Source of the DNA: an uncultured Gammaproteobacteria bacterium | Lineage (GTDB): Bacteria > Patescibacteriota > Microgenomatia > UBA12405 > CAZGPK01 | Length of the DNA: 53,991 bases | Reading direction: 5' to 3' | NCBI GenBank assembly: GCA_964527115.1 | Contig: CAZGPK010000001.1 | Coordinates: 43,729-97,719 of the forward strand | Shown: positions 18,987-24,978 of the stretch, piece after piece | Layout: each line of letters opens with the position of its first letter | Position numbering within the stretch: position 1 is the stretch's first letter | Program-made: the position numbers and the translations under genes | The notes under the pieces: generated by a model | What the model saw: the letters and a program-made list of their open reading frames with translations, nothing else | The model's database searches: none | Told to the model about the DNA's origin: nothing

Positions 18987-19637
18987 TTAAGGGCAATGGG
19001 TTGATTTTTGGTAGCCTTCTTGTTGGGCTTCTTTTTCAGTACAGAACCATTTTTCACCAAGATCCAGTTCAATTGTGGTGCGATTATATTCTTGGCAGGT
19101 GGGGAGATGGTAGACTTTTACAAGATCGTTTCGGCCAATGTTCCCTTTTATTTGGCAATCTGGATTGTCGGGGTTTTCTATTTGCTGGCATTTGGAGCTC
19201 CAAAGGCCAAGTTCTTGTTCCTGGGCCTGGTTTACTGCTTCTTTGATAGTATCCCCTAGTCTGCTTTTAGTGCTGTCATAGCGGGCGAGGCCTTCTTCGG
19301 CCATTTGGAGATTGACGAGAGTTTTTCCCTGCCAGACAAGAGCAAGGGTTCTTTTGAATTTGTCTTGGGCAATGCGTTCTACTTTTACATATTTTCCCAA
19401 GATAAGTTTTTCTAGGTGCTCTTTGGCTTCTTGGCCGTTACAGAAGATAAGCTCGGGGGCATCAAGATCAGCAAGCTTGATGTTTTGGCCAGAGCTGATT
19501 ATGAAAGTGTCGCCGTCAGTTACTTCTTGGACTTTAAAGCTATCTTTTTGTTGATTTAGCAGATTGCCAAGAATGAAGTTTAGGATAAGGGAGAGAGCAA
19601 GAAGAAAGGGTAAAATAGCTTTTGATAGCTTGGACAC
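18987..19637 (-). CDS. Membrane-anchored thermonuclease (SNase-like) with Cys-rich C-terminal domain
   Basis: N-terminal TM; DGDTF, LDAPE, D..KR.LA, VN..M..EG.A, A.....G.W; C-terminal C.IKGNI...YH.P.C..Y..T.I....GE.WFC.E.EA..G. Confidence 0.88.
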   Translation of the reverse strand: MSKLSKAILPFLLALSLILNFILGNLLNQQKDSFKVQEVTDGDTFIISSGQNIKLADLDAPELIFCNGQEAKEHLEKLILGKYVKVERIAQDKFKRTLALVWQGKTLVNLQMAEEGLARYDSTKSRLGDTIKEAVNQAQEQELGLWSSKCQQIENPDNPDCQIKGNIGRNDLVKVYHLPTCQEYNRTTIELDLGEKWFCTEKEAQQEGYQKSTHCP

Positions 19638-19733: not shown

Positions 19734-20078
19734 ATGAAATATCTGCTTTTACTTTCCGCCATGTTTTTGGCTGTGGTCGGCCAATTTGCTTTAAAAAAGG
19801 GTATTTCTTCTTCTGTTTTATCTTTTAATCTTGAGTCGATAGTTAAAACTCTTTTTTCTCCGATGGTTTTTTTTGGTTTTTGTCTGTATGGTTTTTCTTC
19901 AATTATCTGGCTTTTTGTTTTGCAGAAGTTTCCCCTATCTGTGGCTTACCCCTCTTTGGCTTTAACGTATATCTTTGTGCTTATTTTTTCGGTGTTGTTT
20001 TTTAAAGAATCTTTTAGTGTGGCAAAAATTGCAGGAGTGCTGTTAATATTTTTGGGAGTATGGGTCATAAACAAGTGA
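19734..20078 (+). CDS. EamA/SMR (ArnE/ArnF-like) 4-TM small transporter, candidate lipid-sugar flippase
   Basis: 114 aa, 4 TM; GQ..LK.G, PLSVAYP, E......KI.G..LI..G motifs. Confidence 0.85.
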
Positions 20079-21130
20079 AGACTAAAACGGTGCTAATAAC
20101 CGGGTCGTCGGGGCTGATTGGCTCTGAGTCGGTGCGGTTTTTTGCTGATAAGGGTTTTAAAGTCGTGGGAGTTGATAATGATATGAGAAAGTATTTTTTT
20201 GGGAAAGAGGCAAGCACTAAGTGGCAGGGCGATGTTTTAAGAGAAAAATATGCTAATAAATTTGAGCTTTATGAGGCGGATGTAAGAGATAAAAAGGCGG
20301 TGGAAAAGATTTTTAAGAGTTATGAGTTTGATTTAATAATTCACACGGCGGCTCAGCCTTCACACGACTGGGCAGCAAAAGAGCCGATAACCGATTTTAC
20401 GGTAAATGCTAATGGAACTTTGGTGATGCTGGAGGCTTTCCGCAAGTGGGCGTCGGAGGCAACTTTTATTTTTACTTCAACTAATAAGGTTTATGGTGAT
20501 CGGCCCAATGACTTGCCCTTGGTTGAGCTTGAAAAGAGGTATGAGATCAGAAAAGACCACAAGTATTATCGGGGAATTGATGAGAGTATGAGCATTGACA
20601 ATACCAAGCACAGTGTTTTTGGGGCCTCAAAAGTGGCGGCAGACGTGATGGTGCAGGAGTATGGGAAATATTTTGGTTTAAATACGGCTATTTTTAGAGG
20701 AGGTTGTTTGACGGGTCCGGCACATAGCGGAACAAAACTTCACGGATTTTTGGCATATTTGGTGAAATGCATTGCCACGGGAACAAAGTACACGATTTTT
20801 GGGTACAAGGGAAAGCAGGTGCGGGACAATATTCATTCATATGATCTGGTTAATGCTTTTTATCATGTTTATAAAAAACCAAGGCAGGGGGAGGTCTATA
20901 ATATGGGCGGGGCCAGACAGTCTAATATTTCAATTTTGGAGGCAATTGAAAAAATTGAGAAAATATTGGGTAAAAAGGCAGTTTTTGAATATTCAAAAGA
21001 GAATAGGATTGGGGACCATATTTGGTATATAAGTGATGTGTCAAAATTTAAAAAGCATTATCCGAAATGGGATTTTAAATATAATATAGATGATATCTTG
21101 GAAGATATTTGTAAAAATGGTCATTTTTAA
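20075..21130 (+). CDS. NAD-dependent epimerase/dehydratase, CDP-tyvelose (RfbE)-like family, with FxxxK in place of YxxxK
   Basis: [47 protein letters not shown] start at 20075 forms a GTGA overlap with the upstream stop (alternative start 20060). Confidence 0.85.
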
Positions 21131-21138
21131 GTTTTTTT

Positions 21139-22206
21139 ATGAAGTATAGAAAAGTTTTAGTGACGGGAGGGGCGGGTTTTTTGGGGTCAAGCTTGTCAAT
21201 TGCTCTCAAAAAAAACTGGCCGGAGATAGAAGTACTAGCCTTTGACAATCTTAAGAGGCGGGGGTCGGAGCTTAATTTAACCAGGCTTAAAGGTGCGGGA
21301 GTGGTCTTTGTTCATGGGGATGTCAGAAGCCCAGAAGACCTTGAATCTTTTGGGGGGGTTGACCTTATTGTTGAGTGTTCGGCAGAACCTTCGGTTTTGG
21401 CGGGGATCAATGGCTCTCCGCTTTATGTTTTGAATACGAATTTAGTAGGAGCGTTAAACTGCCTGGAGTTGGCCAGAAAAAATGGGGCTGATTTTTTCTT
21501 TATTTCCACCAGTCGGGTTTACCCCTATGATTTGCTGGAAAAGGCAAAAGTAAAAGAGGAAGTTCGTCGCTTCGCTTTTGAAGAGAGACAGGCGATGGTA
21601 GGCTTATCAGATAAAGGGGTTAGTGAAGAGTTTCCTTTGCAAGGAGTGAGGTCACTTTATGGGGCTACCAAGCTTTCAGCTGAGTTCTTTTTGGCAGAAT
21701 ACGCGGCCAATTACGGGATTGGGTACATTGTTAATCGGTTTGGGTGTATTGCTGGGCCCTGGCAGATGGGCAAAATTGATCAGGGGGTAATGGCTCTTTG
21801 GGTGGCGGCTCATGTTTTTGGAAAGAAGCTAAAGTATATTGGCTTTGGTGCTGAGGGAAAACAGGTACGAGACTTTATTCATGTTGATGATGCAGTAGAG
21901 GTAATTATGAAACAGATTGAGAATCTTGAAGATTTAAATGGAGAAGTCTTTAATGTCGGAGGGGGGAGGCAAAACAGTATTTCTTTGAGAGAGTTAACAG
22001 ATTTGTGCGAGAAGGTGACGGAGAAGAAAATAGAGATTGGGGCTGAGGTGCAAACTAGGCCCGGAGACCTGAAGATTTATGTGTCTGATAATAGAAAGAT
22101 TGAGGAAAGGTTGGGATGGAAAGTTAAAAGAAGCCTGGAGGACATTGTGCGGGATACTAAAGAGTGGATGGAGCGTAATGTTGATATTTTAGGAAATATT
22201 TTATAG
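21139..22206 (+). CDS. NAD-dependent epimerase/dehydratase, second RfbE-like paralog
   Basis: GGAGFLG, DNL.RRGS, CSAEPSV, STSRVY, SLYGATK, GP.Q.GK.DQG, GKQVRD. Confidence 0.88.
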   Translation: MKYRKVLVTGGAGFLGSSLSIALKKNWPEIEVLAFDNLKRRGSELNLTRLKGAGVVFVHGDVRSPEDLESFGGVDLIVECSAEPSVLAGINGSPLYVLNTNLVGALNCLELARKNGADFFFISTSRVYPYDLLEKAKVKEEVRRFAFEERQAMVGLSDKGVSEEFPLQGVRSLYGATKLSAEFFLAEYAANYGIGYIVNRFGCIAGPWQMGKIDQGVMALWVAAHVFGKKLKYIGFGAEGKQVRDFIHVDDAVEVIMKQIENLEDLNGEVFNVGGGRQNSISLRELTDLCEKVTEKKIEIGAEVQTRPGDLKIYVSDNRKIEERLGWKVKRSLEDIVRDTKEWMERNVDILGNIL

Positions 22207-22252
22207 TAAGAGTATTTTATAGATGTTTTTTTTGAATATTTAAAATTTTTTT

Positions 22253-22996
22253 ATGAAAAAGAAATTATCAGTAGTTATCCCCGCTTATAATGAGGAGGGA
22301 GAAATCGAAAAAACAGTGAGGGCTTTTTCGGAAAAGCTAAAAAAGGAAAAAATAGTTCACGAGATATTAGTGGTAAATGATAATAGTAGGGACGGGACAG
22401 AGGGTATTTTAAAAAAACTTGAGAAAGAGATAAAAGAGTTTCGATATGTAAACAATAGCCCACCTAATGGTTTTGGTTTTGCGGTTAGGCGGGGTCTTGA
22501 TGAGTTTAGTGGTGATTTGGTGGCGGTAGTGATGGCTGATCTGTCAGATGATCCCAAAGACCTGGTGAGAATGTATGGGAGAGCTTTAAAAGGGTCTGAC
22601 TGTGTGTTTGGGAGTAGATTTGTGAAAGGGGGAAGCGTGATTGACTATCCGATTCACAAGCTTTTATTAAACCGGTTTATCAATAATATTATTAGGGCTT
22701 TGTTTTTAATAAAGTACAATGATGTGACCAATGCTTTTAAGCTTTATTCAAAAGAGACAATTAAAGGATTGAGACCCTTCTTGAGCAATCATTTTAATCT
22801 AACGGTAGAATTGCCCCTTAAGGCAATAGTCAGAGGCTATTCGTATACAGTTATTCCCAACAAGTGGACAAACAGAAAGAGCGGGGTGTCAAAGCTAAAG
22901 ATAAAAGAGATGGGGTCAAGATACTTTTTTATTATTCTCTATTGCTACTTAGAAAAACTTTTATCTAGAGGGGATTACAAGAAGAAGCAGAATTAA
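22253..22996 (+). CDS. DPM-synthase-like polyprenyl-phosphate glycosyltransferase (GT2)
   Basis: SVVIPAYNEE, VNDNS.DGT, MAD.SD.P, GSRF, DVTNAFK.Y. Confidence 0.9.
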   Translation: MKKKLSVVIPAYNEEGEIEKTVRAFSEKLKKEKIVHEILVVNDNSRDGTEGILKKLEKEIKEFRYVNNSPPNGFGFAVRRGLDEFSGDLVAVVMADLSDDPKDLVRMYGRALKGSDCVFGSRFVKGGSVIDYPIHKLLLNRFINNIIRALFLIKYNDVTNAFKLYSKETIKGLRPFLSNHFNLTVELPLKAIVRGYSYTVIPNKWTNRKSGVSKLKIKEMGSRYFFIILYCYLEKLLSRGDYKKKQN

Positions 22997-23011
22997 AAAA
23001 AGACAAAAAAT

Positions 23012-23653
23012 ATGGATTTAAAAGATATATATAGAAATAGGTTTGTGAATAAAGAGGAAAGAGTCAAAATGTGGAAGATTTTAGTTGAAGATTTTTTTCA
23101 GAAGTATATGGGTAAAGGTGATGTAGTTCTTGATATCCCTTGTGGTTATTGTGAATTTATTAATAATGTTAAATGTAAAAAGAAAATTGCCATAGATTTA
23201 AATGGAGATGGTAAAAAATATACTGGAGTTGGGGTGGAGTTTTATAAATCTAGTTCAGTAAAACTTCCATTGAGAGATAGGTCTATTGATAAAATATTTG
23301 TCAGTAATTTTTTTGAACATTTAAACAGAGATGATATACAAAAGACGATTAGTGAATTTAAAAGGGTTTTAGCAGAAGGTGGCCAGGTGTTGGTTTTGCA
23401 ACCTAATATTAGGTTTTGCCAGAAAGACTATTGGATGTTTTTTGACCATATTACACCAATTGATGACAGGGCTTTGGATGAGGTTTTTAGTGCTAATGGC
23501 TTTAAGTTAAAGGAGAAGATATTAAGGTTTTTGCCATATACTACTAAAAGTAAGTTTCCAGTAAATCAAATTTTAATAAGGCTGTACTTAAAATTATCTT
23601 TTTTTTGGAAAGTTTTTGGTAAACAAAGTTTTATGATTTTTGAGAAAATATGA
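23012..23653 (+). CDS. Class I SAM-dependent methyltransferase
   Basis: VLDIPCGYCEF, SNFFEHL, L..GG......PN, FFDH. Confidence 0.88.
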   Translation: MDLKDIYRNRFVNKEERVKMWKILVEDFFQKYMGKGDVVLDIPCGYCEFINNVKCKKKIAIDLNGDGKKYTGVGVEFYKSSSVKLPLRDRSIDKIFVSNFFEHLNRDDIQKTISEFKRVLAEGGQVLVLQPNIRFCQKDYWMFFDHITPIDDRALDEVFSANGFKLKEKILRFLPYTTKSKFPVNQILIRLYLKLSFFWKVFGKQSFMIFEKI

Positions 23654-24978
23654 AATTTAGAAAGATATTTATAAGTTTGAGCCAATGGCTTAGAAACCAT
23701 GAATTATTTGTTATATTCACAATATTTTATTTAGTGTTCGGGAGAACTTTTTTTGATTTTATTTCAGACCATGCAGTAAATATATTAAAGGGAGATCAGT
23801 GGAATGTTGTGGATTTAGTCACTAATTCTTTTAATCTAAGCGACTTGCTTTATCAGCACAATGAACACAGGATTGGTACTGGGCTTTTCGTTATGAAGTT
23901 TTTGGCGTCACTGTCAAGTTGGAATATCAGATATGAAACTTATTTTACAGGTATTTTAATATTAGCTAGTTCTGTTTTTGCTTTATTGTTAAAGAAAAAA
24001 CTTTTTAAGAAGTTAGATATTTTTGATATTTTTATCCCTTATATTTTTTTGAATCTTTATCAGTGGGAAAATTTACTTTGGGGGTTTCAGATAGCCTTTG
24101 TTTTACCTTTGTTCTTTTTGTTTATAAGTTTGTACCTGTTTACCTTTAGGGCTTCTTTTTTAAGAAACATATTGGTAAGCATCATTGTTTTATTTTCTGC
24201 ATATTCGTCTTTCCATGGTTTGTTTTTGGGTGGTATTGTCTTACTTTGTGGATTAAAAGCTTTGGCTTGGGAAGGTAAGAAAGGTAAGAAACATCTTTTA
24301 TCTCTTGTTTTGCCGGCTTTATTTGTTTTATCCACCTATTTTATAGGTTATGAATTTAGAACGAAAAATCTAATGACTGGAATTGAGGAGGTTCATTTGT
24401 TGTCTGTTTTGCAATACTTGTGTTTTCAAATAAATAATTATGTTGGGAATCAATCTTATGGTACATTATTTTATTTTTTGCCAGTGTTGTTTCTTTTTCT
24501 CTTTTTAGTTGTACTTTATAAAACAATAAAAGTAAAAGGTGAAACTAAATATTTTATTATTTTGTCGGTGTTTTTGTATTCATTTTTATTTATGTTATTT
24601 ACAGTGACGGGGAGGCTACATTCGGGTGTTCACCAGGCTATGGCTTCAAGATATGTTACACACATGACTCCTTTATTTTTTGGCTCCTATTTAGTGCTTA
24701 GGATTCTGTGGAGAAAAAAAAGGAAAAATTTATTGTTTATCCTTATCTTTTTGTTTGCTTGTTTTTCTGCTGCTAATAATCATTTGAACTACAATCATGC
24801 TGAGGCAAGACGAAAAAAGTTAGTTGAGTGGAAAGATTGTTTTTTAGAAAATGGAATAGTTTCGGACTGCAACGAGAATACTAAGTACTTTATTTATCCT
24901 ATCTTTGGAGATGGTTTAGTGCAATCTAAAATGAAAATACTGGAAGAAAAAAATCTAAATTTGTTTAACGGGAAATAA
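23650..24978 (+). CDS. Polytopic membrane protein, probable GT-C glycosyltransferase
   Basis: First external loop GDQW...QHNEHR; Q.ENL.WGFQ; RY near the last TM; about 11 TM segments; last gene of a GT2/flippase operon. Confidence 0.65.
   Translation: MKFRKIFISLSQWLRNHELFVIFTIFYLVFGRTFFDFISDHAVNILKGDQWNVVDLVTNSFNLSDLLYQHNEHRIGTGLFVMKFLASLSSWNIRYETYFTGILILASSVFALLLKKKLFKKLDIFDIFIPYIFLNLYQWENLLWGFQIAFVLPLFFLFISLYLFTFRASFLRNILVSIIVLFSAYSSFHGLFLGGIVLLCGLKALAWEGKKGKKHLLSLVLPALFVLSTYFIGYEFRTKNLMTGIEEVHLLSVLQYLCFQINNYVGNQSYGTLFYFLPVLFLFLFLVVLYKTIKVKGETKYFIILSVFLYSFLFMLFTVTGRLHSGVHQAMASRYVTHMTPLFFGSYLVLRILWRKKRKNLLFILIFLFACFSAANNHLNYNHAEARRKKLVEWKDCFLENGIVSDCNENTKYFIYPIFGDGLVQSKMKILEEKNLNLFNGK

Follow-up and report, generated by a model that had tools for sequence, protein, structure and literature searches.

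A deep clade of tyvelose epimerase-like proteins with phenylalanine at the catalytic tyrosine position, and a second epimerase-like protein that depends on it

What is the function of a sugar-nucleotide epimerase-like protein that lacks the catalytic tyrosine of its superfamily and is encoded directly beside a paralogue that retains it? The Tyr of the YxxxK motif is regarded as the defining catalytic residue of short-chain dehydrogenases/reductases (SDRs) and of all well-studied sugar-nucleotide epimerases. In a 53,991-nucleotide stretch of DNA from a member of the Patescibacteriota (assembly GCA_964527115.1, contig CAZGPK010000001.1, positions 43,729–97,719; hereafter the window), two tandem genes encode extended SDRs related to cytidine diphosphate (CDP)-tyvelose 2-epimerase (TyvE): SDR_F, with Phe at the Tyr position, and SDR_Y, with Tyr. 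An earlier note, made from the sequence alone, had read their active-site differences as complementary, and had proposed an obligate heteromer or a two-step pathway with non-canonical chemistry. We find that this arrangement is a real, conserved biological feature, that SDR_F belongs to a deep clade and that SDR_Y depends on SDR_F, but SDR_F not on SDR_Y. The features concerned are as follows.

20060–21130, plus strand: SDR_F, a TyvE-related extended SDR of the Tyr-less clade, predicted to catalyse the first pathway step
20363–20365, plus strand: codon CAC for His102 (AAQPSH) of SDR_F, aligned to Met85 in the sugar-lining VAM segment of TaTyvE (PMC13098431)
20480–20488, plus strand: Thr141-Asn142-Lys143 of SDR_F, the retained equivalent of the TyvE TNK segment
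20618–20620, plus strand: codon TTT for Phe187, at the SDR catalytic Tyr position in SDR_F (Lys191 at 20630–20632)
20741–20743, plus strand: codon CAC for His228 of SDR_F, aligned to TaTyvE Gln205 (a sugar contact) and invariant
21139–22206, plus strand: SDR_Y, a TyvE-related extended SDR with the T/Y/K triad intact, predicted to catalyse a second, SDR_F-dependent step
21508–21516, plus strand: T124-S125-R126 of SDR_Y
21658–21660, plus strand: codon TAT for Tyr174 of SDR_Y
21778–21783, plus strand: D214-Q215 of SDR_Y

The motifs from which the earlier note set out are exact in the two translations: STNKVYG and HSVFGASK (TTT at 20618–20620) in SDR_F (356 amino acids; alternative GTG start at 20075), and SLYGATK and STSRVY in SDR_Y (355 amino acids). 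SDR_F carries GSSGLIG, D39, AAQPSH102, S-T141-N142-K143-VYG and HSV-F187-GAS-K191, and SDR_Y carries GGAGFLG, S-T124-S125-R126-VYP and SL-Y174-GAT-K178. The two proteins are 31% identical, and the top solved relatives of both are the CDP-tyvelose 2-epimerases 1ORR and 9RL0 (E 2e-36 to 1e-44); F187 of SDR_F aligns onto the catalytic Tyr164 (HSPYGCSK) of these enzymes. A protein identical to SDR_F is recorded on six contigs, and a metagenome contig (L084) matches the window at 100% over its part of SDR_F and at 99% over SDR_Y.

Phe at the Tyr position proved to be conserved across the family. It was present in 118 of the 120 closest SDR_F homologues (74–81% identical; pattern H[ST]xFGxSK), all 120 of which have STNKVYG (mostly Patescibacteria, with other phyla represented too), so the earlier note's own ground for abandoning its idea, closest homologues with Tyr, does not apply. 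Among 120 SDR_Y homologues, 112 have S[ST]SRVYP, and Tyr is kept wherever the motif could be located. An exhaustive profile search of 1.84 billion cluster representatives gave 771 clusters at E < 1e-30; of the best 150 (representatives of 50%-identity clusters, 39–70% identical to SDR_F), 114 have F at the position, 8 have Y, 5 have L and 2 have M. Maximum-likelihood analysis of 136 sequences, with the two solved TyvEs as the root, resolved two well-supported sister clades: an SDR_Y clade (21 sequences, all with Tyr, EPSV and STSR[VI]YP; support 100) and an AAQP[SA]H clade that includes SDR_F (113 sequences; SH-aLRT 99; F 93, Y 11, L 5 and M 2). Each protein thus falls in a clade of its own outside the characterized TyvE group. 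The F-type clade is deep and is defined by the motifs AAQPSH, S-T-N-K and FxxxK. Within the AAQP[SA]H clade the Tyr position underwent at least 14–16 changes between F, Y, L and M, at least seven of them forced by strongly supported branches. Because the position switches so often, the phenolic hydroxyl would, on a plain reading of the tree, be dispensable for the function of the SDR_F clade. The His of the PSH segment is nearly constant across the AAQP[SA]H clade, and conservation in SDR_F is very high in the catalytic and sugar-pocket segments (T141, N142, K143, K191, H102, H228, R255 and R316). SDR_F is also better conserved than SDR_Y encoded on the same contigs (74–81% versus 54–60% identity). 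In one F-type homologue (protein P0264), an intein-like insert of ~325 amino acids occupies residues ~223–550 (HSLFGA/CFDDTTEIL ... VSGN/SKAAGD).

SDR_F is an extended SDR predicted to bind nicotinamide adenine dinucleotide (NAD) and a nucleoside diphosphate (NDP)-sugar. An AlphaFold model of SDR_F built with a 66-sequence alignment reached a predicted local distance difference test score (pLDDT) of 94.9; with a shallow 20-sequence alignment the pLDDT was 75 and the active-site loops were disordered. The best Foldseek match of the model was 1ORR (template-modelling (TM) score 0.87/0.92, root-mean-square deviation 1.8 Å), compared with TM 0.72–0.79 for GalE, RmlB and the other listed matches, and the model contains the TyvE-type beta-hairpin (strands 154–156 and 161–163). 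The likeness of SDR_Y to TyvE was assessed by sequence comparison. Both proteins share with TyvE (identity ~30%) the GxxGxxG motif, the Asp for NAD and the beta-hairpin insert; D39 ends strand 2 of SDR_F, which suggests a preference for NAD over NADP.

Two papers supplied the residue roles, one on the structure of TaTyvE (PMC13098431) and one on TaCPa2E (PMC7851689). In TaTyvE, N125A and K126A are inactive, the Asn positioning the sugar and K126 binding pyrophosphate (PMC13098431); Asp204 caps the cytosine and ribose, and Gln205 contacts the sugar (PMC13098431, PMC7851689). TyvE Thr124 and Lys168 are kept in both proteins (T141/K191 in SDR_F and T124/K178 in SDR_Y), as are Q235 and the phosphate-binding R237 and R299. 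The catalytic Tyr164 is Phe187 in SDR_F, which therefore has an incomplete triad, and Tyr174 in SDR_Y, in which the triad is complete. The TNK segment is kept in SDR_F and reads T-S-R in SDR_Y; VAM is replaced by P-S-H102 in SDR_F and P-S-V in SDR_Y, such that neither protein has TNK together with VAM. The Tyr203-Asp204-Gln205 loop is K-L-H228 in SDR_F, with Leu227 in place of Asp204, whereas SDR_Y keeps Asp-Gln-Gly. W207, W210 and F211 correspond to F, Y and L in SDR_F and to V, L and W in SDR_Y. In the alignment, SDR_F thus has two invariant His residues (H102 and H228) where TyvE touches the sugar. SDR_F departs from TyvE in the triad, SDR_Y in TNK, and both in VAM and in pathway context; by these features neither protein qualifies as a TyvE.

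The two genes occur together far more often than expected by chance, although the association is one-sided. In Patescibacteria (401 genomes), SDR_F was found in 11 and SDR_Y in 5; all five SDR_Y genes adjoin SDR_F, and 6 of the 11 SDR_F genomes lack SDR_Y. In Omnitrophota (301 genomes), 78 genomes encode an F-type SDR and 36 encode SDR_Y; 35 of these 36 also have the F-type gene (Fisher 8e-23), and the F-type gene stands alone in 43 of 78. For both phyla together, SDR_F is present in 40 of the 41 SDR_Y genomes, and over half of the SDR_F genomes have no SDR_Y. Of the 35 Omnitrophota pairs, 29 are adjacent (17 F-Y and 12 Y-F), three share a contig but are 0.4–2 kb apart and three are on separate contigs. 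A further view came from 80 genome loci anchored on SDR_F (78 scorable; SDR_Y orthologue defined as ≥45% identical): 44 of the 78 have an SDR_Y orthologue, mostly directly downstream, and the remainder carry glycosyltransferase (GT) genes of families 4, 2 and 11, other SDRs or unrelated genes. On a tree of 78 near-identical F orthologues the adjacent SDR_Y was gained or lost at least 12 times. Among 80 metagenome loci anchored on SDR_Y, 48 have an F-type SDR within 4 kb, divergent copies (41–54%) being F-type as well; the genes stand in the orders F-Y, Y-F, F-GT2-Y and F-GT2-methyltransferase-Y. SDR_Y therefore depends on SDR_F but not the reverse, and the same F enzyme occurs with or without the partner; the earlier note's question of whether the genes always pair is answered 'nearly always' for SDR_Y in whole genomes and 'no' for SDR_F.

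Both genes lie in an operon of six tightly packed plus-strand genes (19734–24978; gaps of ≤46 nucleotides and two overlapping junctions), upstream of which are rmlD, rmlC and rmlB (minus strand) and rmlA (plus strand). A scan for promoters and terminators found no signal above background. The other four genes of the operon are as follows.

19734–20078, plus strand: four-helix SMR/EamA-type membrane protein of 114 amino acids, a candidate flippase resembling ArnE/ArnF
22253–22996, plus strand: Dpm1/GtrB/ArnC-like GT2 of 247 amino acids, a predicted polyprenyl-phosphate glycosyltransferase
23012–23653, plus strand: class I S-adenosylmethionine (SAM)-dependent methyltransferase (Pfam Methyltransf_11/25), a frequent fourth gene of the module
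23650–24978, plus strand: polytopic membrane protein of 442 amino acids, a putative GT-C-type transferase

The small membrane protein matches Pfam EamA (29.5 bits; cut-off 28.2) and Multi_Drug_Res, and reaches NCBIfam ArnF (3.9e-16, 59.6 bits; cut-off 99) and ArnE (1.4e-11) below their cut-offs; its gene overlaps the start of SDR_F, and the same gene precedes SDR_F at four other loci (L002, L014, L020 and L085). The GT2 is above the cut-off for Pfam Glycos_transf_2 (PF00535; 3e-25, 89.5 bits) and resembles NCBIfam PgfS, AglJ, ArnC and PpgS, all far below their cut-offs. Its orthologues (60–74% identical) come after SDR_Y; among F-anchored loci, a GT2 orthologue of ≥60% identity was present in 19 of 37 with SDR_Y and in none of 31 without it (p = 5e-7). 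Methyltransferase orthologues (44–64% identical) come after the GT2 in many loci. The 442-residue protein, whose gene overlaps the methyltransferase gene by 4 nucleotides, has no Pfam match and scores 19 bits against the LA_3751/LA_3752 putative glycosyltransferase family (NCBIfam NF047440; cut-off 200); relatives (30–33% identical) come after the GT2 in L002, L020 and L124.

We consider it an even call that SDR_F and SDR_Y are two different NDP-sugar-modifying extended SDRs acting in sequence—an ordered pathway rather than the halves of one enzyme. Of the possibilities raised by the earlier note, the one that fits best is a two-step pathway with non-canonical chemistry, the two-step part of which is supported by comparative genomics. 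In such a pathway SDR_F would act autonomously, converting a common NDP-hexose to an NDP-sugar A that many kinds of glycosyltransferase could use directly. It would hold NAD+ tightly and catalyse a redox-neutral, epimerase-type conversion, with proton transfer by a group other than Tyr. SDR_Y would be an add-on with an altered sugar pocket, converting A to B either on the NDP-sugar or on a polyprenyl-phosphate sugar. The Dpm1-like GT2 would load the sugar onto polyprenyl phosphate, the methyltransferase would methylate it, the SMR-type protein would flip the lipid-linked sugar (if the route is indeed lipid-linked) and the 442-residue membrane protein would attach the flipped sugar to a surface polymer. 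We also suggest, more tentatively and at rather less than even confidence, that the AAQPSH/STNK/FxxxK clade is a distinct NAD-dependent catalytic class of NDP-sugar enzymes, in which Tyr is replaced by another proton relay (candidates are His102, His228, Thr141 and Lys191). Such a class would make one specific activated sugar traded among Patescibacteria, Omnitrophota, other phyla and mobile elements, with SDR_Y dedicated to that product. Going by their alignment to TaTyvE, His102 or His228 could be the acid/base that replaces Tyr.

Several observations weigh against this interpretation. The order SDR_F before SDR_Y is a parsimony argument. In 32 of the 80 SDR_Y-anchored metagenome loci no F-type gene lies within 4 kb, and the dependence of SDR_Y therefore rests on the draft genomes sampled from two phyla. 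For the flippase and the GT-C transferase, the scores behind the assignments fall below family cut-offs, and a literature search found no biochemical data on members of either clade. The 11 Tyr-bearing members of the AAQP[SA]H clade also carry the His, and canonical 4,6-dehydratases that use Tyr have a similar S-H segment; the idea of His102 as a new catalytic invention is weakened by both. Loss of Tyr in GalE (Y149F) reportedly cuts activity ~10^4-fold, so SDR_F could be non-catalytic.

The first alternative, a weaker version of the heteromer in the earlier note, is a facultative hetero-oligomer: SDR_Y would need a mixed tetramer with SDR_F for its activity or stability, and SDR_F could also form active homo-oligomers. 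The presence of SDR_F in nearly all SDR_Y genomes, mostly adjacent, would suit such a complex, as would the assembly of the TyvE tetramer from dimers (PMC13098431) and the lack in each protein of one TaTyvE-essential residue (Y164 in SDR_F and N125 in SDR_Y). This last point is the part of the 'complementary' active sites of the earlier note that stands. The unequal conservation of the two proteins gives no sign of a co-evolving interface. Near-identical F enzymes occur both with and without SDR_Y, and the two genes are on different contigs in three of 35 genomes and are sometimes separated by GT2 or methyltransferase genes. Extended SDRs have a complete active site in each protomer (GalE, RmlB and TyvE structures, for example, 1ORR and 9RL0), which makes complementation across subunits structurally unlikely. 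Natural fusions point the same way: F-type SDRs are fused to methyltransferase plus GT2, GT11-like, GT26 (WecG/TagA), FkbM or class I methyltransferase domains, and no F-Y fusion was among the F-type SDR fusions found. We therefore regard the facultative complex as unlikely. The obligate heteromer with complementing sites proposed earlier finds no support, because the pairing is one-sided, gains and losses of SDR_Y are frequent, gene order varies and F-type SDRs have glycosyltransferases and methyltransferases, but never SDR_Y, as fusion partners.

A second alternative places SDR_Y after the lipid-loading step: SDR_F would make the NDP donor, the GT2 would load it and SDR_Y would epimerize the polyprenyl-phosphate sugar before flipping. 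The GT2 orthologue does track SDR_Y and not SDR_F, and the aromatic nucleoside-binding residues W207, W210 and F211 of TyvE are V, L and W in SDR_Y. There is also a precedent in the three-component pentofuranose system of Citrobacter youngae, in which the cytoplasmic SDR ORF13 sets the Xylf versus Ribf side chain and, as its authors infer, does so on undecaprenyl-phosphate ribofuranose (PMC11127046). However, SDR_Y keeps the D-Q-G loop and both phosphate-binding Arg residues, which fits an NDP-sugar equally well, and the occurrence of both F-Y-GT2 and Y-F-GT2 orders is uninformative about the order of the reactions. We consider this variant unlikely as well.

SDR_F might instead be a pseudoenzyme, an NAD- and NDP-sugar-binding module that senses or channels the sugar or presents it to a neighbouring or fused glycosyltransferase. 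The general base is gone, its position tolerates F, L and M, and the fusions to glycosyltransferases and methyltransferases would suit a substrate-delivery domain. By contrast, conservation is very high exactly in the catalytic and sugar-pocket segments, and the dependence of SDR_Y on SDR_F is more easily explained by a product. In Persicobacter, moreover, SDR_F adjoins a GT26 gene amid otherwise unrelated genes. The intein of one homologue sits inside the FGA/SK motif, and inteins usually target functionally critical sites. Taken together, we find the pseudoenzyme improbable. Finally, TTT is a single transversion from TAT, but a private mutation, pseudogene or sequencing error at codon 187 is already refuted, since close and distant homologues alike carry the Phe motif and the reading frames are intact.

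The ordered pathway leaves the question of what SDR_F acts on. The genome to which the window belongs (720 kb, 89% complete) encodes five PF01370 SDRs (RmlB, RmlD, a GalE-like protein, SDR_F and SDR_Y), none of them a CDP-glucose dehydratase. Its sugar-1-phosphate nucleotidylyltransferases are RmlA, a GalU-like protein, two ManC-like proteins and one generic member; no glucose-1-phosphate cytidylyltransferase was found above the family cut-off in this genome, nor was rfbF or rfbG. With only these five SDRs and no such cytidylyltransferase, there is no CDP-glucose 4,6-dehydratase, and the rfbF, rfbG, rfbH and rfbS context that supplies TyvE with CDP-paratose is missing. CDP-paratose is thereby excluded as the substrate, which extends genome-wide what the earlier note had thought probable from the window, and the automated name 'CDP-paratose 2-epimerase' for F-type proteins is wrong for this genome. 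The starting sugar should be uridine diphosphate (UDP)-glucose/galactose, UDP-N-acetylglucosamine (UDP-GlcNAc), deoxythymidine diphosphate (dTDP)-glucose (or intermediates of the rml pathway) or guanosine diphosphate (GDP)-mannose/glucose. Elsewhere, the neighbours of F-type genes are rml, UGDH/UXS or GMD/GFS genes and share no single theme.

Two specific substrate assignments were considered. Replacement of GalE by SDR_F is rejected, because the genome has a canonical GalE-like gene (C1:98167-99162), ~450 nucleotides beyond the end of the window. Conversion of GDP-glucose to GDP-mannose by SDR_F acting as a 2-epimerase, in place of a missing phosphomannose isomerase, is a lead only. The genome has two ManC-like guanylyltransferase genes (C1:37112-37915 and C3:13372-13710) and no phosphomannose isomerase above Pfam cut-offs, and GMD, GFS and GT11 genes lie near F-type genes in some loci. 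F-type genes are, however, equally near UGDH/UXS and rml genes elsewhere.

Loss of the Tyr is not unprecedented in SDRs: the UDP-GlcNAc 4,6-dehydratases of the CapE/FnlA and PglF/CapD types have Met at this position and remain active through neighbouring residues. These enzymes belong to a different subfamily (Polysacc_synt_2, with a TDK motif) and have Met rather than Phe; SDR_F matches Polysacc_synt_2 (PF02719) weakly (7e-11) in its N-terminal part. Our literature search found neither a characterized Tyr-less TyvE-like enzyme nor a description of the F clade, and the TyvE papers treat Tyr-bearing members only (PMC13098431, PMC7851689). The operon, known here from its genes, resembles three-component systems (GtrA/GtrB/Gtr*, ArnC/ArnE-F/ArnT and CsbB/GtcA/YfhO) in its gene set: a predicted polyprenyl-phosphate GT2, a small membrane protein that is a candidate flippase, and a large polytopic protein. 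As in the pentofuranose systems of this type, auxiliary SDR epimerases would diversify the sugar (PMC11127046). It differs in that the donor would be made by two TyvE-like SDRs and a methyltransferase, and in that the putative membrane transferase has no curated GT-C match. The F-type clade comprises hundreds of 50%-identity clusters and retains 70–80% identity across phyla without the Tyr hydroxyl. Once worked out, the SDR_F reaction would represent either new SDR chemistry or a new role of the fold, would name a popular surface sugar of ultra-small bacteria and would put thousands of annotations right. Because SDR_Y depends on SDR_F, the pair offers a ready two-enzyme assay, and the copy on an Azospirillum brasilense plasmid provides a harmless, genetically tractable organism.

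The distribution of the F family points to horizontal spread. The F gene is present in 2.7% of Patescibacteria genomes and yet is 67–77% identical across families (one carrier, 51%), and a homologue (55.6% identity over 96% of the query) is encoded at 436859–437929 of a 635-kb record annotated as 'uncultured phage' (LR745206.1); rarity with such identity, together with the phage homologue, is what indicates spread. About a quarter of the sampled Omnitrophota genomes carry an F-type SDR, and a 2026 preprint, in which the cargo listed for a Mu-class element of Omnitrophota includes a 'CDP-paratose 2-epimerase', fits this picture. Cultured carriers of the F clade include Azospirillum, Deinococcus, Persicobacter, Nostoc and Burkholderia. 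On plasmid p5 of A. brasilense (NZ_CP032350, 171763–173963), an SDR_Y orthologue (50%) precedes an SDR_F orthologue (64%), and a gene for a radical-SAM protein comes next. The Deinococcus aetherius SDR_F gene lies with a GT26 gene in a cluster that also has UGDH and UXS. Without SDR_Y, F-type SDRs adjoin GT4, GT2, GT11 and GT26 genes.

Radical-SAM genes recur at or near F-type SDRs in distant phyla, both on A. brasilense p5 (L081, 10126–11859; annotated only as 'radical SAM protein') and in candidate phyla radiation loci (cluster 8; L043, L054, L059, L061 and L064), in which Pfam identifies a B12-binding domain. These neighbours are a hint that the same sugar undergoes C-methylation or another radical reaction. 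A parallel module at five loci (L047, L058, L065, L079 and L080) consists of a GT-C-like membrane protein, SDR_F, a different SDR (cluster 23) that has a Cys-rich insert, and a Dpm1-like GT2 (cluster 41), which indicates that SDR_F partners at least two unrelated 'second' SDRs ahead of lipid-phosphate GT2s. In the window itself, a gene on the minus strand between rmlA and the operon (18987–19637) encodes a 216-residue protein of the staphylococcal nuclease fold (PF00565), which has a hydrophobic segment at the N terminus and a tail rich in Cys. The plus strand of the window (1–53991) contains 14,236 G and 7,339 C; the GC skew is 0.3–0.49 regardless of gene orientation and 0.12–0.26 in the AT-rich part at ~24–40 kb.

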